From contig CAWGMQ010000011.1 in assembly GCA_963823665.1 (NCBI GenBank), positions 544,001-608,000 of the forward strand: DNA of 64,000 bases. The letters run 5' to 3'. The notes under the pieces were generated by a model that worked only from the letters and a program-made list of their open reading frames with translations, did no database searches and was not told the origin of the DNA. The position numbers and the translations under genes were made by a program. Positions 7,301 to 36,366 of the stretch are shown in pieces (the stretch's first letter is position 1; each line of letters begins with the position of its first letter). The DNA comes from an uncultured Planctomycetota bacterium. Its GTDB lineage: Bacteria > Planctomycetota > Planctomycetia > Isosphaerales > Isosphaeraceae.

Positions 7301-8192
7301 GGGATTCCAGGATTCCAGACACCCATCCTTTTGTCTCGGTCCCGCGCATCCATTCATTCGCGGCTCGCTCGTTCGGTGCAAAACTACGGCCTCTGGTCAT
7401 TTCGAACTCGCAGAAGGCGAGTGCCCGACGCACGGCAAAACGTGGGTGTCTTTGCGTCAGGAAAGCTCGAGAAAGGAGGAAGTGCCTCGAAACACAGAAA
7501 CCTTTCATCGCGACCCTGCGGGTTAACGAATCCCGCCCGGCAGAGCCTGGCCGGCAGCCGGAAGCAAGTCTTGCGTGGGGAGGGGTGACCCTCACTGCGA
7601 AGCGTAGACAGCGAGTCTCCATGCCATGCTATCGAGCCCCGAAATACTCATCGTGGGAGCCTCCGTTGTAGACACAAGCGGGGGCCGCGTCGACACGCCG
7701 CAATGGCCTGGCGTGTTCGGTCCTGCCGGGGTCCAAGAACATGGCGCAGGGACGCGAGGGTTGCTCGGGAACCTGAGAGCCCCATCCGTCTCCACTGACA
7801 TTTCCGGCTCGGGAACCGGAATACCAACTCCCCGGCCCACGACCCCGCGTCGGGTCGCTGGGAGCGAACAAGACGCAAGGGTGGTATCGCAACATGAAGG
7901 CAACGAAATGTGACGAAAGGGGCGGACGGGAGTCGGAGTGCTCCGTAGTAGCAGTGAAGCGGGGGAATGGGCCCTCCCAGACCCTGTGGAGCGAAGGGGG
8001 TACCGTGTCGCGGACTGGAAGCCGGAACCACGCCGAGGGCATTGGACCTCAGAGCGCGTCACCGCGAGGCGACCAGATCGTGTGAGGGACAGCGACGCCG
8101 CGACATGACGAGCCGGATGCCTTAATTGGGCACGTCCGGATCAGTGGGAGCCCTGGCGGAGCGATCCGCCAGGGCGACCCGGCGACATCCCC
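7301..8192 (+). repeat. Hairpin repeat R1 (right arm split by intron)
   Basis: Left arm GGGATTCCAG-GATTCCAGACACCCATCC from 7301; right arm GTGGGTGTCT(7451)^GACATCCCC(8184-8192). Confidence 0.9.
7452..8183 (+). mobile_element. ORF-less group II intron, copy 1 (732 nt)
   Basis: 5' TTGCG; domain V GAGCCGGATGCCTTAATTGGGCACGTCCGGATC; domain VI hairpin ending GACCCGGC; EBS1 AGACAC at 7670-7675 complements exon GTGTCT; boundaries set from empty sites. Confidence 0.92.
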
Positions 8193-9348: not shown

Positions 9349-10329
9349 GGAGCCAGACACCCAATCTCTGAGGAGCCGAGGAGCCAGACACCCAATCTCT
9401 GGTTCCGAGGAGGAGCCAGGGATTCCAGGCACCCATCCTTTGTCTCGCGGCCCCCGCATCCTTTCATTCGCGGCACGCAAGTCGGGTGCAAAACCACGGC
9501 CTCTGGTCAAGTCGAACACGCAGAACGCGAGCGCCTGACGCTCGGCAAACGGTGGGTGTCTGACATCCTCGGCAAACGGTGGGTGTCTTTGCGTCAGGAA
9601 AGCTCGAGAAAGGAGGAAGTGCCTCGAAACACAGAAACCTTTCATCGCGACCCTGCGGGTTAACGAATCCCGCCCGGCAGAGCCTGGCCGGCAGCCGGAA
9701 GCAAGTCTTGCGTGGGGAGGGGTGACCCTCACTGCGAAGCGTAGACAGCGAGTCTCCATGCCATGCTATCGAGCCCCGAAATACTCATCGTGGGAGCCTC
9801 CGTTGTAGACACAAGCGGGGGCCGTGTCGACACGCCGCAATGGCCTGGCGTGTTCGGTCCTGCCGGGGTCCAAGAACATGGCGCAGGGACGCGAGGGTTG
9901 CTCGGGAACCTGAGAGCCCCATCCGTCTCCACTGACATTTCCGGCTCGGGAACCGGAATACCAACTCCCCGGCCCACGACCCCGCGTCGGGTCGCTGGGA
10001 GCGAACAAGACGCAAGGGTGGTATCGCCAAACGAAGGCAACGAAGTGCGGCGAAATGGGCGGACGGGAGTCGGAGTGCTCCGTAGTAGCAGTGAAGCGGG
10101 GGAATGGGCCCTCCCAGACCCTGTGGAGCGAAGGGGGTACCGTGTCGCGGACTGGAAGCCGGAACCACGCCGAGGGCATTGGACCTCAGAGCGCGTCACC
10201 GCGAGGCGACCAGATCGTGTGAGGGACAGCGACGCCGCGACATGACGAGCCGGATGCCTTAATTGGGCACGTCCGGATCAGTGGGAGCCCTGGCGGAGCG
10301 ATCCGCCAGGGCGACCCGGCGACATCCCC
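9349..10329 (+). repeat. Hairpin repeat R2 with GGAGCCAGACACCCAATCTCTG sub-repeats and a duplicated right arm
   Basis: Sub-units at 9349-9418; main left arm at 9419; empty arm GGTGGGTGTCTGACATCC at 9551-9568; second arm split by intron. Confidence 0.9.
9589..10320 (+). mobile_element. ORF-less group II intron, copy 2 (732 nt)
   Basis: Near-identical to copy 1; same insertion point GGGTGTCT^GACATCCC. Confidence 0.92.
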
Positions 10330-12390: not shown

Positions 12391-13306
12391 TGGATGGAGA
12401 GAGCGGCCGGGGATCCCAGACACCCATCCTTTGTCTCAGGGATCCCAGACACCCATCCTTTGTCTCACGGCCCCCGCATCCATTCATTCGCGGCTCGCAC
12501 GCTCGGCGGAATACCACGGGATCCCAGACACCCATCCTTCGGGATCCCAGACACCCATCCTTTGTCTCACGGCCCCCGAATCCACTCATTAGCGGCTCGC
12601 ACGTTCGGCGCAAAACCACGGCCTCTGGTCATTTCCAACACGCAGAAGGCCAGTGCCCGACGCTCGGCAAACGGTGGGTGTCTGACATCCCTCTGACATC
12701 CCCGACGTTCGGCAAAAGGTGGGTGTCTTTGCGTCAGGAAAGCTCGAGAAAGGAGGAAGTGCCTCGAAACACAGAAACCTTTCATCGCGACCCTGCGGGT
12801 TAACGAATCCCGCCCGGCAGAGCCTGGCCGGCAGCCGGAAGCAAGTCTTGCGTGGGGAGGGGTGACCCTCACTGCGAAGCGTAGACAGCGAGTCTCCATG
12901 CCATGCTATCGAGCCCCGAAATACTCATCGTGGGAGCCTCCGTTGTAGACACAAGCGGGGGCCGTGTCGACACGCCGCAATGGCCTGGCGTGTTCGGTCC
13001 TGCCGGGGTCCAAGAACATGGCGCAGGGACGCGAGGGTTGCTCGGGAACCTGAGAGCCCCATCCGTCTCCACTGACATTTCCGGCTCGGGAACCGGAATA
13101 CCAACTCCCCGGCCCACGACCCCGCGTCGGGTCGCTGGGAGCGAACAGGACGCAAGGGTGGTATCGCCACACGAAGGCAACGAAGTGCGGCGAAAGGGGC
13201 GGATGGGAGTCGGAGCGTCTCGTAGTACCGTTGAAGCCGGGGAACCACTCCGAGGGACCCGGTGGAGGGAAGGAGACGCCATGTCACACAACCGTTGGAG
13301 GGAAAC

Positions 13307-14705: not shown

Positions 14706-17125
14706 TCGCGAAACGAAGCTGCGGATGAGTCTGTTATGACTGGATTTGCAACCAGGACATAACCCGATGTACGACCACCGGAACCCTACCAGGACGTGCG
14801 GCCGGAGCAATCCGACCGTGCGAAGCTCTTGGGACAACGTAACCTCACCTTCGGGTGGTTGGATATCCCGTGAGGGAATCCGGCGACTGCGAACGCCAAT
14901 GCGGTCGGGGGCCAGGGGTGGATGGCATGGCTAATCCAGGTGAACTGCCGATAAACGTCGTGAGATCCAACAAGCCAAAGGCGCTGAGAGGCTTGAACCA
15001 AAAAGGTACGTGGCCAGGTACAGTGGGATTTCCCATCCCCTGTCGTCGTCATCCGAGCCACCGGCGGAGAGGCAGAGCCTAAACCATCCGTGATTCATCC
15101 GTGGAACGTGGTAAGCCCGTCGCCCTCCCTTCGGGGTAGGACCGTCGTAAGGCGTCGCCGATGGGGCGGCGGGTGGAGGATGAGGGAGCAAGCCAATGCC
15201 GTTCGGTAGTCGATCGGATAGAGGGTGAGTCCTCCCACGGACGACATCCCCTCACCGCGAAAGCGGTGCCGACTTCCCTCAGGTGTTCCGTCACGAGAGA
15301 ACCTTGGCCAACCGACTCAGGGAGACAAGCAGATATGTCGGCGGCAGAAATGCTTGCTGGTGCGGCTCCCGAGCTTACGCCCGACTGGCACTCCATCGAA
15401 TGGAAGAAAGTCTGGCGCACAGTCCGTCGGCTCCAGGCGCGTATCGTGAAGGCTGTTGCGGAGGGCAGATGGAATAAGGTCAAGGCTCTGGTTTATCTGC
15501 TCACGCACTCGTTCAGTGGCCGGGCCCTGGCCATTTTGCGAGTCATCAGTAATTCGGGTGCGAAGACTCCCGGTGTGGACGGAGTTCTCTGGAACACACC
15601 GGAAGCCAAGTCGGCTGCTTTCAGCACTCTGCGTCGGCACGGTTACCAACCGCAACCGCTCCGCCGGGTGTACATTCCCAAAAGCAACGGCAAGCGACGT
15701 CCTCTCGGAATTCCCACCATGTCAGATCGAGCCATGCAGGCATTATACTTGCTAGGCCTCGATCCCATTGCGGAATCTCGAGCCGACGGCCATTCCTATG
15801 GCTTTCGGCTGGAACGTCGTTGTGCCGACGCCCTGGAACAATCTCATATTGTCTTGGGTAATCGGAGCGGTCCAGCATGGATTCTCGAAGGGGACATCAA
15901 AGCTTGCTTTGATCGCATCAGTCATGACTGGCTCTTGACGCACGTCCCCATGGACCGGCAGTTGCTCGGGCAATGGCTGAAAGTGGGTTTCCTGGAGAAG
16001 CACGCCTGGTTCGCCACCACGGAAGGAACACCTCAAGGCGGGATCATTTCACCCGTCCTGGCGAATTGGACTCTGGATGGACTGCAACGGCTGTTGGCGG
16101 AACAGTTCGCCGAGAAGCACGGGCGACAACGGAAGTTTAAAGTCCACCTGGTCCGCTATGCGGATGACTTCTTGATCACGGGCATCTCAAAGGAACTCCT
16201 CCGTGACCAAGTGCAACCTCTCGTGGCTCATTTCTTGAAGGAACGCGGCTTGGAACTTTCCCACGAGAAAACCCAGATCACGCATGTGGAGGATGGCTTC
16301 GATTTCTTGGGGCAGAATGTGCGACGCTATCGCTGCGGCAAGGTGTTCACCAAGCCGTCCTTGCGAAACGTGAAGACGTTCTTGAACAAGATACAGGAAA
16401 CGATCGACGGCTCGGGCAGCCTAACGGCAGGAGAGATGATCTGGCGTTTGAATCAGCAGATCAAGGGCTGGACCATGTACCACCGTTACGCGGCGAGCAA
16501 GCGCACTTTTACGTACGTGGATCACCGGATTTTCCAGAAATTGTGGCGTTGGTGTCGACGACGGCACCAGAACAAAGGCCGGAGGTGGATCAAGGAGAAA
16601 TACTTCCAGCAAGACGGTTACCGCCACTGGGTCTTCACCGGTACGCTGTTTGACCAGAAAGGCCAAGGCCGGCCGATCCAGTTGATGGAAGCAGCCAAAG
16701 TGAAGATCATTCGTTATGTGAAGATCCGGAGCGACGTGAATCCCTACGATCCGAAGTGGGAACTGTACCTGGAAGCACGACTGGGTTGGCAACTGAGCCA
16801 AACGCTGGCAGGTCGGGGTCGGATCGAATACTTATGGAAGGAACAAGAGGGACGATGCGTGGTCTGTGGTCAACCGCTGCGGATCGCAGAGGAAGACTTG
16901 CATCTCCACCATCGCATCTGGCGCAGCCGGGGCGGTTCTGGCACAGCCGACAACCTGGAGTTGTTGCATGCCAACTGTCATCGGCAGATCCATGTCCAAG
17001 AACGACTGACGAAAGCGGCCGCGTCCTGCGAGGGGCGTTCGTGAAGGCTTGAGCTGCATGAAGGGAAACTTTCACGTGCAGTTCTGAGGGGAGGGGGTGG
17101 CGGTAACGTCACCTCCTTACCCGGC
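14706..17125 (+). mobile_element. Inner group II intron (CL-like, IIB) inserted in domain VI of the outer intron
   Basis: Removing it restores GGGAG-CCTTGGGGGA-GCGA-TCCCCCAAGG-CGACCCGGC; it has its own DV (GAGCTGCATGAAGGGAAACTTTCACGTGCAGTTC, about 17051-17084) and DVI; putative EBS1 TTCCCA (15030-15035) pairs with TGGGAG. Confidence 0.9.
15335..17044 (+). CDS. ltrA: Group II intron RT/maturase with C-terminal HNH endonuclease
   Basis: [18 protein letters not shown]-terminal domain, [17 protein letters not shown] domain, CVVC...HLHH...[16 protein letters not shown] upstream of the ATG. Confidence 0.95.
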
Positions 17126-22185: not shown

Positions 22186-23364
22186 TTGGCCATGGCCAGG
22201 AAGTCGAGCCAAGAGCGAGTGCAGGCGACGCAAGACGGGCGATCCGAGCGAGCCGATTCCTTCGATATTGGCGACACGGTCGAGGTGCAATTTCGAGTCG
22301 TCGAGGGAGGGAACGAGCGGATCGAGATCTTCAATGGCGTCGTCGTCCAGCGGTCGGGGCATGGGTTGCACGAGATGTTCACGGTTCGCCGCATTGTTCA
22401 GGGCGAAGGTGTCGAGCGCCGGTTCAAATTGCATTCGCCATGGATCGCCGACGTCGCTGTGAAAAGGTCGGGCAAGGTGCGGCGCACCAGGCTCTATTAC
22501 CTCCGTGACAGGTCGGGGAAGGCCGTTCGGCTCAAGGAGCGCTTCTCCTACACAACCGGCGCTGACGCCAAAGCCGCCAAAGCCGAGCGCAGAGCCGCCC
22601 GAGCCGCCCGGAAAGCCAGCAAGGTAGAGGCCGAAGTAGCACCGTCAAGTAAAACGAAGCAGCCCAAGGAGGCGTCCCATCGAACGGCCAGTGCGAGCGA
22701 TGCCGGGCCGGCAGAGTCCGAAGGGACGGTCGCGGGATCGTCGATTGACGCCGTATTCGTCCCCGGTAAGTCGCCATACCGGCTAAAGCAGTCTATCGCG
22801 CTCACCGTGGTCGAAACCCGGTCAGGAGTGACCATCCGAAGCGCTGATCTGGGCCTCGAGCGCGACTTAGTCGGTCGTGGACCAGATTGGAACTCCGCGA
22901 TGAATGACTTCGGGCGCAGGTTCGACTTACTGGTCGAGAATAATTGGGCTCTACCGCCTCATAGCATGACACTCAAGAACCGTCGTATTGCCAGCATCCT
23001 CGACAGCGTCGTGGATTGGAAGCGCCACGACGACGAGAATCCTTTGGTGCAGCCCATGTGGGGCCGGCTCCAAGGGCGCCTTGCAGATGGGGCTTTGACC
23101 ATCCATTGGCTAATCGGTCCGAATGGGGATCGCGATGCCGAAGGCGGCCTGCACACGCGAGATGTTCCCGAGGCGCTCGCCGAGCTCGACACGGGCCAGT
23201 GGTTCTACGGCACGGCCAAGTGCTATCCGGATCACATTGAGTGGATCGAGCAGCCCAGCGTTGTTCCGGACCCGAGCGACTCTGAGGGCAGGCGTGCGGT
23301 CTGGGACAGCATGCGGAAGGTCCAGGCCAATCAGCCAGGCTGCTGGCCCGTGAAGCCGCGCTGA
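22186..23364 (+). CDS. rplS: Ribosomal protein L19 (bL19) domain fused to a ~200-aa uncharacterised C-terminal region
   Basis: FDIGDTVEV..VVEG..ERI..F.GVV...FTVRRIVQGEGVERRF.LHSP.I..V.V.RSGKVRR.RLYYLRDRSGKA; Lys/Ala linker; extra domain in the same frame. Confidence 0.85.
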   Translation: MAMARKSSQERVQATQDGRSERADSFDIGDTVEVQFRVVEGGNERIEIFNGVVVQRSGHGLHEMFTVRRIVQGEGVERRFKLHSPWIADVAVKRSGKVRRTRLYYLRDRSGKAVRLKERFSYTTGADAKAAKAERRAARAARKASKVEAEVAPSSKTKQPKEASHRTASASDAGPAESEGTVAGSSIDAVFVPGKSPYRLKQSIALTVVETRSGVTIRSADLGLERDLVGRGPDWNSAMNDFGRRFDLLVENNWALPPHSMTLKNRRIASILDSVVDWKRHDDENPLVQPMWGRLQGRLADGALTIHWLIGPNGDRDAEGGLHTRDVPEALAELDTGQWFYGTAKCYPDHIEWIEQPSVVPDPSDSEGRRAVWDSMRKVQANQPGCWPVKPR

Positions 23365-23391
23365 TTCGGAGCGGGGAGCGGACGAGTAACC

Positions 23392-24435
23392 ATGGCGATC
23401 AGTTTGTATTGTCTGGATGTCGGCCAGGGCCAATGCATAGTGTTGATGGCCCAATCGGCCGAGGGAAACCAGGCCGCCTTGATCGATGTCGGCGTGGACG
23501 GGAAGCGGTTGGCCCGATGGCTGAAACGCATCAAAGTCCGGCGCATTCCGCTGGTTGTGTTGACGCACAATCATAGCGACCACATCAAGGGACTCGCTGC
23601 TCTGGTCGAGGAATTCGCATCGAAAGTCGGCGATATCCGATTCGTCATCGATCAGCCTCCAGAGCAACTTCCTTTCTGGTCGCCAATCCAGGCATGGCGT
23701 GCCGCCGGTAAGATCGGGTCGGCCAGCGTCGTCTATCCGCCGGACACGTTTGAGGCCGGGACGGGTCACCCCCTTCTCAGCCGCGACCTAGGGGGATTCC
23801 AGCTCTACTGCACCTATCCGACCATCTTCGAGGCCGAGGCAGTTGTCCGCGAAGCCCCGCTGCTGGGTACTCAGCCCGGCGGCAGCGTGAATGCCGTGAG
23901 CACGGTAGTGCGACTGGCCAGAACTGCTGAACCACACCGGACGATTGCCCTTTTTGGCGGCGATCTCACCTTTCGAGGATGGCAGCGCCTTGACGAGAAA
24001 GGTTACGACCTGTCCACCAACCTGCTTGTCGTCCCGCACCATGGCTCGAGTTTCGGTGCCAGCCGGGCGTTTGGGCCCCGACACCTAGCACGCCTCTCTG
24101 AGCCCAAATATGCCCTGTTCTCCGTCGGCACCGAGAATTCGTTTGGGCACCCCCGCAGGGATGTCGTTCGCGCTTTTTGCGAAGTGCGGGCGACGGTGCT
24201 CTGCACTCAAATCACGCATCAGTGCGTGCGCAGGCCCAAGCAACTCCCCGGTCAAACTGTGCGGACAGCCACGCCGGGGGAGCCTGACCTGGTTTCGATC
24301 GGAGTGCGCTGCGCAGGCACAATCATGATCGAAATCCCCGACGTGGGTTCGCCAAGAGTGGTTGGTCTTCGGGAACATCGGAGAGCGGTCGACCGCCTGC
24401 CTCGAACCGCGGACTGCCCGATGTGTCGCCCTTGA
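23392..24435 (+). CDS. Stand-alone ComEC/Rec2-like metallo-beta-lactamase-fold hydrolase (putative nuclease)
   Basis: LDVGQG, LIDVG, THNHSDHIKG, GGD, PHHGS, SVGTENSFGHP; Cys-rich tail; no membrane domain. Confidence 0.88.
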   Translation: MAISLYCLDVGQGQCIVLMAQSAEGNQAALIDVGVDGKRLARWLKRIKVRRIPLVVLTHNHSDHIKGLAALVEEFASKVGDIRFVIDQPPEQLPFWSPIQAWRAAGKIGSASVVYPPDTFEAGTGHPLLSRDLGGFQLYCTYPTIFEAEAVVREAPLLGTQPGGSVNAVSTVVRLARTAEPHRTIALFGGDLTFRGWQRLDEKGYDLSTNLLVVPHHGSSFGASRAFGPRHLARLSEPKYALFSVGTENSFGHPRRDVVRAFCEVRATVLCTQITHQCVRRPKQLPGQTVRTATPGEPDLVSIGVRCAGTIMIEIPDVGSPRVVGLREHRRAVDRLPRTADCPMCRP

Positions 24436-24473: not shown

Positions 24474-24737
24474 GGACAACCGTCCGAGGAGGAGGAGCCA
24501 GGGGGAGCCAGACACCCAATCTCTGGACAACCGTCCGAGGAGCCGAGGAGCCAGAGGAGCCAGACACCCAATCTCTGGTTCCGAGGAGAAGCCAGGGAAT
24601 CCAGGCACCCATCCTTTTCTCACGGTCTTCCATATCCATTCATTCGCAGCTCGCACGTTCGGCGCAAAACCACGGCCTCTGGTCACTTCGAACACCCATA
24701 ACGCGAGTGTCCGACGCTCCGCAAGAGGTGGGTGTCT
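24474..24737 (+). repeat. Hairpin repeat R6 with sub-repeats; right arm ends at the intron insertion point
   Basis: GGAGCCAGACACCCAATCTCTGG twice; left arm at 24595; GGTGGGTGTCT followed by GTGCG instead of GACATCCC. Confidence 0.85.
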
Positions 24738-24833
24738 GTGCGTCGTTGGCTCGGTGTCACCGCGTTTGCGCCTGAATCTCTCGCCTGAATCGGCTCCTGA
24801 GCCCTGTGTCAAACAATTCCGGCCCCGGCAAAC

Positions 24834-27113: not shown

Positions 27114-28068
27114 GGAGGAGCCAGACGCCCAATCTCTGGTTCCCAGGAGGAGCCGGGGAATCCAGACACCCATCGTTTTATCAGGGAATCCAGACACCCA
27201 TCGTTTTATCACGGTCCCCCCCATCCATTCACTCGCGGCTCGCAAGTTCGGTGCAAAACCACGGCCGCCGGTCATTTCGAACACGCAGAAGGCGAGTGCC
27301 CGACGCTCGGCAAAAGGTGGGTGTCTTTGCGTCAGGAAAAGCTCGAGAAAGGAGGAAGTGCCTCGAAACACAGAAACCTTTCATCGCAACCCTGCGGGTT
27401 AACGAATCCCGCCCGGCAGAGCCTGGCCGGCAGCCGGAAGCAAGTCTTGCGTGGGGAGGGGTGACCCTCACTGCGAAGCGTAGACAGCGAGTCCACATGC
27501 CATGCTATCGAGCCCCGAAATACTCATCGTGGGAGCCTCCGTTGTAGACACAAGCGGGGGCCGCGTCGACACGCCGCAATGGCCTGGCGTGTTCGGTCCT
27601 GCCGGGGTCCAAGAACATGGCGCAGGGACGCGAGGGTTGCTCGGGATCCTGAGAGCCCCATCCGTCTCCACTGACATTTCCGGCTCGGGAACCGGAATAC
27701 CAACTCCCCGGCCCACGACCCCGCGTCGGGTCGCTGGGAGCGAACAAGACGCAAGGGTGGTATCGCAACATGAAGGCAACGAAATGTGACGAAAGGGGCG
27801 GATGGGAGTCGGAGTGCTCCGTAGTAGCAGTGAAGCGGGGGAATGGGCCCTCCCAGACCCTGTGGAGCGAAGGGGGCACCGTGTCGTGGACTGGACGCCG
27901 GAACCACGCCGAGGGCATTGGACCTCAAAGCGTGTGACCGTAAGGCAGCCAGATCGTGAGAGGGACAGCGACGCCGCGACATGACGAGCCGGATGCCTTA
28001 ATTGGGCACGTCCGGATCAGTGGGAGCCCTGGCGGAGCGATCCGCCAGGGCGACCCGGCGACATCCCC
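27114..28068 (+). repeat. Hairpin repeat R7 (split by intron)
   Basis: Sub-repeat, duplicated GGGAATCCAGACACCCATCG left arms, right arm split at 27326/28060. Confidence 0.9.
27327..28059 (+). mobile_element. ORF-less group II intron, copy 4 (733 nt, the most divergent)
   Basis: Same ends and domains as the other copies, with several substitutions. Confidence 0.92.
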
Positions 28069-29950: not shown

Positions 29951-30776
29951 GGGGATTCCAGACGCCCACCCTATTGTCATGGTCCCCCGCATCCATTCAT
30001 TCGCGACTCGCGCACTCGGCAAACGGTGGGTGTCTTTGCGTCAGGAAAGCTCGAGAAAGGAGGAAGTGCCTCGAAACACAGAAACCTTTCATCGCGACCC
30101 TGCGGGTTAACGAATCCCGCCCGGCAGAGCCTGGCCGGCAGCCGGAAGCAAGTCTTGCGTGGGGAGGGGTGACCCTCACTGCGAAGCGTAGACAGCGAGT
30201 CTCCATGCCATGCTATCGAGCCCCGAAATACTCATCGTGGGAGCCTCCGTTGTAGACACAAGCGGGGGCCGTGTCGACACGCCGCAATGGCCTGGCGTGT
30301 TCGGTCCTGCCGGGGTCCAAGAACATGGCGCAGGGACGCGAGGGTTGCTCGGGAACCTGAGAGCCCCATCCGTCTCCACTGACATTTCCGGCTCGGGAAC
30401 CGGAATACCAACTCCCCGGCCCACGACCCCGCGTCGGGTCGCTGGGAGCGAACAAGACGCAAGGGTGGTATCGCCAAACGAAGGCAACGAAGTGCGGCGA
30501 AATGGGCGGACGGGAGTCGGAGTGCTCCGTAGTAGCAGTGAAGCGGGGGAATGGGCCCTCCCAGACCCTGTGGAGCGAAGGGGGTACCGTGTCGCGGACT
30601 GGAAGCCGGAACCACGCCGAGGGCATTGGACCTCAGAGCGCGTCACCGCGAGGCGACCAGATCGTGTGAGGGACAGCGACGCCGCGACATGACGAGCCGG
30701 ATGCCTTAATTGGGCACGTCCGGATCAGTGGGAGCCCTGGCGGAGCGATCCGCCAGGGCGACCCGGCGACATCCCC
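29951..30776 (+). repeat. Hairpin repeat R8, internally deleted (split by intron)
   Basis: Both arms present but the central part is missing. Confidence 0.85.
30036..30767 (+). mobile_element. ORF-less group II intron, copy 5 (732 nt)
   Basis: Appears identical to copy 2 by eye. Confidence 0.92.
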
Positions 30777-35438: not shown

Positions 35439-36366
35439 GGGATGTCAGACACCCACCTTTGGGATGTCAGACACCCACCTTTGGGGATGTCAGACACCCA
35501 CCTTTTGCCGGGCGTCGGACACGCGCCTTCTGCGTGTTCGAAATGACCGGGGGCCGTGGTCTTGCGCCGAACTTGCGAGCCGCGAATGAATGGATGCCGG
35601 GGCCGTGACAAAAAGATGGGTGTCTTTGCGTCAGGAAAAGCTCGAGAAAGGAGGAAGTGCCTCGAAACACAGAAACCTTTCATCGCGACCCTGCGGGTTA
35701 ACGAATCCCGCCCGGCAGAGCCTGGCCGGCAGCCGGAAGCAAGTCTTGCGTGGGGAGGGGTGACCCTCACTGCGAAGCGTAGACAGCGAGTCTCCATGCC
35801 ATGCTATCGAGCCCCGAAATACTCATCGTGGGAGCCTCCGTTGTAGACACAAGCGGGGGCCGTGTCGACACGCCGCAATGGCCTGGCGTGTTCGGTCCTG
35901 CCGGGGTCCAAGAACATGGCGCAGGGACGCGAGGGTTGCTCGGGAACCTGAGAGCCCCATCCGTCTCCACTGACATTTCCGGCTCGGGAACCGGAATACC
36001 AACTCCCCGGCCCACGACCCCGCGTCGGGTCGCTGGGAGCGAACAAGACGCAAGGGTGGTATCGCCAAACGAAGGCAACGAAGTGCGGCGAAATGGGCGG
36101 ACGGGAGTCGGAGTGCTCCGTAGTAGCAGTGAAGCGGGGGAATGGGCCCTCCCAGACCCTGTGGAGCGAAGGGGGTACCGTGTCGCGGACTGGAAGCCGG
36201 AACCACGCCGAGGGCATTGGACCTCAGAGCGCGTCACCGCGAGGCGACCAGATCGTGAGAGGGACAGCGACGCCGCGACATGACGAGCCGGATGCCTTAA
36301 TTGGGCACGTCCGGATCAGTGGGAGCCCTGGCGGAGCGATCCGCCAGGGCGACCCGGCGGAATCCC
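35439..36366 (-). repeat. Hairpin repeat R10, inverted; intron lies in the opposite arm
   Basis: GGGATGTCAGACACCCACCTTT three times, reverse-complement core, GATGGGTGTCT^GGAATCCC. Confidence 0.9.
35626..36358 (+). mobile_element. ORF-less group II intron, copy 6 (733 nt)
   Basis: Same element; 3' exon begins GGAATCCC. Confidence 0.92.

Follow-up and report, generated by a model that had tools for sequence, protein, structure and literature searches.

What is a ribosomal protein doing at the N-terminus of a protein that is encoded directly ahead of a putative nuclease? The question is raised by a gene at 22186–23364 on the forward strand of the window, the 64,000-nucleotide stretch of DNA from a planctomycete of soil analysed here. 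Translation starts at TTG 22186 or ATG 22192, and a single frame stays open across the fusion, giving 390 aa counted from the ATG. Residues 17–117 match PF01245 (Ribosomal_L19; E 3e-38), and the TIGR01024 score of the fusion is 125 bits, against a cut-off of 90.7. The initial annotation had reported a divergent bL19 in frame with an unknown C-terminal region, and this L19-X fusion, where X denotes the C-terminal part, was confirmed. The ORF of a stand-alone ComEC-type MBL hydrolase, a predicted nuclease, begins 27 bp past the fusion stop on the same strand (23392–24435, 347 aa). The locus is best explained as a derived form of a mobile planctomycete TIGR04255-X-MBL cassette.

The fusion protein starts with a leader (residues 1–22, 22192–22257), which is followed by the captured bL19 core (residues 23–118, 22258–22545), a basic tail (residues 119–143, 22546–22620), a low-complexity linker (residues 144–184, 22621–22743) and X. 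It could be asked whether such a gene exists at all, or whether assembly merged two genes, a second, free-standing rplS and X, through one indel at 22696–22750. The assembly is one of long contigs, the genomes of the group are often frameshifted, and an out-of-frame ATG lies at 22700. A 151-base contig from run X4 is identical to 22545–22695 and reads through the position of the native rplS stop, ruling out a stop lost by error at that position, which had been named as a way in which the fusion might be spurious. Further identical contigs cover parts of X, the intergenic gap and the MBL gene; the read runs may derive from the same site as the genome. Positions 22696–23020 were uncovered by any contig among the matches listed, and the reads thus leave room for one indel in that interval. 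Two properties of the gene itself speak against an artefact: an X-type leader, MARKSS, lies upstream of L19 in place of the native rplS start, and the ORF holds no homopolymer of 5 or more. Taken together, an assembly artefact is highly improbable. From residue 96 up to the point where X begins, the frame contains no ATG, GTG or TTG. Near the fusion gene, no L19 leader or other RNA matched Rfam at E 1, and no sigma-70 site was found.

Two L19 matches in all occur in the genome (16.46 Mb, 92% complete, in 12 contigs). The other one is a canonical rplS on contig C3, located after trmD-like and rpsP-like ORFs (neighbours recognised by eye). The fusion gene as the genome's sole rplS is thereby ruled out, and its placement outside the usual rplS context, as first proposed, stands. 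Second copies of rplS are scarce: two matches were present in 6 of the 389 phylum genomes having an L19 match, and the other five such genomes are accounted for by split genes, a match riddled with stops, a pair of copies both linked to trmD, or an incomplete copy. One partial stand-alone L19-like ORF (L100, G406:C2:42775-42963) spans model positions 40–106 and has a basic tail; its genome also has a normal rplS.

The captured rplS-derived DNA spans about 22257–22620 and does not include the native N-terminal segment. The Lys/Ala stretch at residues 119–143, originally read as a linker, is no neutral spacer and belongs to it: it can be aligned with the native copy as the rplS tail specific to the family, and the identical X4 contig spans it. 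Over 22257–22617, DNA identity to the rplS of another genome (G080) is 76%. Phylogenetic trees placed the L19 copy beside the rplS of G080 (support 0.83; 65/51 in a second tree), and sisterhood with the genome's own rplS was also compatible with the data (p-AU 0.21), so that the copy arose by either duplication or transfer. The domain remains a recognizable bL19, with PF01245 and TIGR01024 above cut-off and the family-specific tail. It differs from genuine rplS products in being a second copy outside the trmD operon, with its N-terminal segment replaced, invariant positions changed and X fused to it.

We then compared the L19 copy with native L19s. Of the 75 columns that are invariant in 48 native L19s of the family (one frameshifted sequence was left out), 14 were changed in the copy, while zero were changed in 36 of the 48 natives; the copy has thus been released from housekeeping constraint. 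It is nonetheless kept under selection, with conservative, L19-like changes (P about 0.001–0.01). The dN/dS of the core was 0.18/1.68 relative to the genome's own rplS and 0.16/1.18 relative to that of G080, and about 120 codons are free of indels and stops despite a dS of 0.8–2.4 from every native copy. The mean BLOSUM value of the changes was +0.71, compared with −0.45 to −0.66 under neutrality (P 0.0003–0.005), and 31 of 61 departures were synonymous, compared with 18–19 in neutral simulations (P 0.004–0.012). Ten of the 14 changes hit residues found among 60 L19s of the phylum, where neutrality predicted 4.1 (P 0.0014), and basic residues were nearly retained (20 vs 22 K/R). At the phylum-universal columns, 5 of 37 were changed, a number not below the neutral 6.8–7.0 (P about 0.2). 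Four replacements, Q45E, K77R, P79K and A99T, were present in none of the 60 phylum natives, which are the best-scoring rows of a larger list and therefore under-sample diversity. Both points weigh against a role in the ribosome. In an alignment with the most-deposited L19 chain, of 115 aa, Q45 pairs with residue 41; Gln40/41 of E. coli L19 has a role in a subunit bridge. Selection on folding only would predict an identical conservative pattern.

How did L19 come to precede X? X (residues 185–390) was matched by no Pfam, NCBIfam, PADLOC or PHROG model, and viral contigs, plasmids, PHROGs, PDB sequences and the ESM Atlas gave no usable match to it. Its relatives numbered 18 among 424 candidates in one search and 48 representatives in a second (one of them a repetitive false match). 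The first six residues of the leader, MARKSS, recur in the N-terminal region of the sister sequence, P0004 (64% over X, tree support 0.987), which carries no L19. Insertion of L19 behind the 22-codon leader of X is therefore the most likely course of events, the alternative being a loss of L19 from P0004. The linkers of the two proteins are not significantly alike (454 of 2000 shuffles reached an equal score). Three other X proteins (P0006, P0007, L025) have in common a ~70-aa N-terminal domain of another kind, which has no Pfam or NCBIfam match.

The fusion is a singleton. An L19 profile found none among the 61 other X proteins, and in a word-index search that covered proteins up to 683 aa, X gave 7 matches among 1116 in proteins of 214–683 aa, with L19 on the fusion protein alone. 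A recurrent L19-X family was looked for and not found: it had no second case in the 61 X proteins, 20 X loci or 18 MBL-selected loci, so that recurrence is without support. X N-termini range in length from 8 to more than 200 residues. Some carry a patatin fragment, a peptidoglycan-binding domain or a zinc ribbon; such stray pieces fit a tolerated capture of L19. At one locus (L182:2558-4384, G045), an X-type domain ends a 609-aa protein with a 400-aa N-terminus, the MBL gene is next and TIGR04255 is absent.

These observations bear on the possibility that L19 is a passenger or folding tag on the same cassette, captured in frame by accident into a tolerant N-terminus and conserved as its misfolding would harm X, or as it aids the folding of X without TIGR04255. 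The single occurrence of the fusion agrees with this account, as do the other stray N-terminal domains (including the 400-aa extension in G045, again without TIGR04255) and the neutral-like rate at which universal L19 residues were lost; bL19, moreover, is described in a review as acting as an RNA and protein chaperone (PMC10931766). The account sits less well with ~120 codons free of indels and stops at such synonymous divergence, with the retained basic tail, and with at least one other locus without TIGR04255 (G099), which has no extra domain. On balance, we regard a passenger or tag as possible but rather unlikely.

X itself was modelled with a pLDDT of 94.5 as two domains: an N-terminal alpha/beta domain of three strands and then helices (22744–23019), with an invariant PPH at residues 255–257, followed by an OB-fold barrel (residues 284–362, 23041–23277) that starts with NPxxQPxW. 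The OB matches are middling (Z 6–7.3, all under 8; rmsd 2.4–3.7) and include OB folds that do not bind nucleic acid, such as CusF. The N-domain was folded together with the OB domain, which dominates the lists of fold matches; the single N-domain match listed was 4wsp (Z 4.7, rmsd 2.0, 57 aligned residues).

The MBL enzyme has the residues H59-x-H61-x-D63-H64, D191, H216-H217, S219 and H253. Its HxHxDH metal motif lies at 23566–23583, and H59, D63 and H64 are invariant in 32 aligned homologues. The C-terminal 80 residues hold a conserved Cys/His cluster (C271/C278/C307/H329/C345), and no PF03772 match to the membrane competence domain was found on the chain. The gene thus conforms to its first description as an MBL hydrolase 27 bp after the fusion, with intact metal motifs, a Cys-rich tail and no membrane domain. 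Among NCBIfam models, it scores best against the C-terminal part of ComEC/Rec2 (TIGR00361), with 40 bits, far below the whole-protein cut-off of 190. In ComEC, the catalytic residues H598/D602/H603/D700/H725/S728 (PMC12455585) correspond, by motif mapping, to H59/D63/H64/D191/H216/S219 here, and the ComEC OB fold enhances the MBL nuclease (PMC12455585). As in ComEC, an OB fold was modelled beside the MBL, with the reservation that its matches stay under Z 8 and that the binding is predicted. Unlike ComEC, the locus has no membrane channel domain, splits OB and MBL between two genes, and adds the Cys/His cluster, the alpha/beta domain and L19.

Do X and the MBL enzyme act together? The ESMFold2 complex of X and MBL, from which L19 was omitted, scored 0.72, and the best control scored 0.09; the mark for this score is reached by 116 of 157 solved pairs and 2 of 215 mismatched pairs and is roughly valid with the alignments used. 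The complex runs had at least 61% of contacts in common, with a partner pLDDT of at least 79. On the X side, the modelled interface consists of the invariant PPH and NPxxQPxW motifs. On the MBL side, the confident interface comprises residues 38–48, 66–76, 91–97 and 294–324, and excludes the metal ligands, which would fit a partner subunit better than a plug of the active site. The model therefore supports a binding of X, through these invariant motifs, to a surface of the MBL enzyme that is set apart from the metal site, and favours the two-protein pairing suggested by the initial annotation; likeness to ComEC could have raised the score.

The genomic data tie the two genes together as well. 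In all 14 X-bearing loci for which downstream sequence was available, the MBL gene came next after X, and four more loci stop at a contig edge. Twenty other loci were scanned (L022/L023 and L024/L027 being near-duplicates), two of which had an MBL gene with an X missed by that profile. In a search selected by MBL, 19 of 401 class genomes matched. X was upstream of MBL in 17 of the 18 other genomes (one remnant, one frameshifted, one fused), TIGR04255 was upstream in 12 of 18 and L19 in 0 of 18; two of the counted loci had contributed sequences to the X2 and TIGR04255 profiles. The pair thus recurs, always without L19, and a C-terminal domain that never accompanies the MBL gene, which would have spoken against the pairing, is not what these loci show. 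Ancestrally, the cassette consists of three genes, TIGR04255-X-MBL, and has no L19. At the window locus, the TIGR04255 gene is absent. The three-gene ancestor, the OB fold in X and the singleton nature of the fusion had all been missed in the initial annotation.

Several loci deviate from this layout. At L077:8001-9106 (G035, same genus), the last ~20 codons of X alone survive before a frameshifted MBL. At L185:3714-7225 (G077), a TIGR04255-X-MBL cassette lies near terminase-like ORFs (by eye), and a transposase-like insert splits its MBL. A more distant MBL at L184:2009-5938 (G033) follows a two-HATPase protein and a receiver-like protein, not X. Behind each of three TIGR04255 genes in the genome studied here (L079, L080 and L081; G000 contigs C5 and C8) lie a small gene and then an effector-like gene; of the three effector-like products, one is an HNH nuclease and two are related proteins without a Pfam match. 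TIGR04255 thus appears to be the first gene in a broader set of three-gene cassettes. The TIGR04255 model (9 sequences, pLDDT 81) had McsB, AdoMetDC and TBP-like sheets as its top folds (Z about 8), and SecB was not among the matches listed. In the literature covered, which lay outside subscription journals, no paper on TIGR04255 was found, nor any on an L19 fusion in anti-phage defence or as a decoy.

Such layouts, together with the order and 27-bp spacing of the genes, could suggest a type II toxin-antitoxin system, in which X would be a HicB-like antitoxin against an MBL toxin and TIGR04255 a TAC-like chaperone, here replaced by L19. The modelled X-MBL binding, the three-strand-plus-helix N-domain and the small gene and effector-like gene that follow the other TIGR04255 genes agree with this proposal, and relatives share with TAC systems an arrangement of three genes, of which the middle one encodes a variable protein and the last is effector-like. 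Unlike TAC, the TIGR04255 model lacks SecB among its listed matches and the window lacks the gene; relative to HicAB, the HicA partner is replaced by an MBL hydrolase. A HicB identity, as proposed for X at the outset, stays putative: no HicB family matched in Pfam at E 0.1 in 53 X homologues, and the confident interface omits the MBL metal ligands. The MBL of G035, moreover, persists behind its remnant of X, though it is itself frameshifted. A toxin-antitoxin system is accordingly very unlikely.

Is the cassette a defence system, as was also proposed? X was found in 7 of 121 family genomes and 3 of 401 phylum genomes, and the named relatives of the locus are planctomycete assemblies. One relative (L023) has the cassette between HmaC-type and HmaB-type genes, and two others (L022 and L028) have it ahead of HmaB-type genes. 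Genes embedded in Hma are often defences, and 7 of 9 candidates protected against phage (10.1101/2024.01.29.577857). Since the cassette is patchy in distribution and sometimes located inside Hma loci, X-MBL is probably a defence nuclease. Thus the proposal gained from the embedding of L022, L023 and L028 and gained nothing from the window, whose 64 kb hold no Hma genes. L026 had appeared by eye to be embedded as well, with no tblastn support. In adjoining HmaB-type genes, these relatives resemble HEC-01 to HEC-09, while the window copy lies outside Hma; the nine tested HECs are ATPase, GmrSD, RelE, HEPN and NYN systems, and no MBL system is named in the main text of that study (10.1101/2024.01.29.577857), whose supplements with 145 untested candidates could include this cassette. 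No PADLOC model matched X or TIGR04255, and MBL matches were partial only: Lamassu LmuA-MBL, RTasMBL, PDC-M48B, 6A-MBL and Avs1a (E 1e-12 to 1e-3). The locus shares with these defence proteins a stand-alone MBL within a small operon. It differs in that the matches are confined to motif regions and lie far below cut-offs where these are given, and in that X and TIGR04255 match none of the partner genes of Lamassu, DRT-associated, PDC-M48, 6A-MBL or Avs1 systems. The locus may thus work like the ComEC nuclease unit and the MBL defence effectors, yet it falls outside each of these groups.

The window also holds introns and repeats. Six group II intron 5′ regions (RF02005), 95–100% identical, lie at 7516–8116, 9653–10253, 12793–13273, 27392–27992, 30100–30700 and 35691–36291; only the copy at 12.8 kb precedes a reverse-transcriptase-like ORF. 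A second intron (RF02012/RF00029) with an RT-HNH-like ORF begins at 14763. A family of 70–250 bp repeats, 76–86% alike, has a member just 3′ of the MBL gene (24545–24744) and further copies near 7310, 9370, 12440, 12540, 19745, 27100, 29950, 32130 and 35625, several of them directly before intron copies. The repeat could be either a target site of the introns or a mobile element of small size.

What, then, might L19 contribute? In the scenario of a ribosome anchor or decoy, put forward in the initial annotation, the fusion would occupy the bL19 site of some 50S particles, or serve as bait for a phage factor, and thereby release or activate the MBL nuclease. The L19 core scores above the TIGR01024 cut-off and its changes fall mostly inside L19 sequence space; the long linker would put X-MBL outside the particle, and L19 is placed where the input of the missing third gene might be needed. 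Occupancy of the ribosomal site is made less credible by the missing native N-terminal segment, by changes at the near-universal Q45, P79 and A99, by the native rplS, present as a competitor, and by the single occurrence of the fusion. We consider this scenario quite unlikely. The related proposal that L19 docks X-MBL on ribosomes or baits a ribosome-targeting phage factor, and so replaces the TIGR04255 input, is unlikely too, if a little less so. If it were true, the N-terminus of X would be a swappable sensor slot of an undescribed family of OB+MBL immune nucleases, a bacterial parallel to integrated decoy domains.

Our leading reading, which we hold tentatively, is that the locus encodes a soluble OB+MBL nuclease with a co-opted, RNA-binding L19 appendage that localises or gates it. 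X and MBL would form a soluble, split version of the ComEC unit of OB fold and beta-lactamase nuclease, with X as the nucleic-acid-binding and regulatory subunit, and the pair would act on phage or other incoming nucleic acid. An L19 copy freed from housekeeping constraint may have been retained as a folded basic barrel with a basic tail. In this lineage without the third gene, the domain would add binding to RNA, through rRNA-like structures or ribosome proximity, and thereby localise or gate the nuclease.

In conclusion, the graft is genuine and unusual, and it sits on a candidate defence cassette that is itself undescribed; its single occurrence limits the weight that it can bear. An OB+MBL nuclease that is soluble and made of two chains would combine the parts of ComEC in a new way, and the cassette matches no PADLOC system. 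The recruitment of a ribosomal protein by what is probably an immune nuclease, and its retention there under selection, offer a small, clean test case of how a sensor or targeting module may originate.
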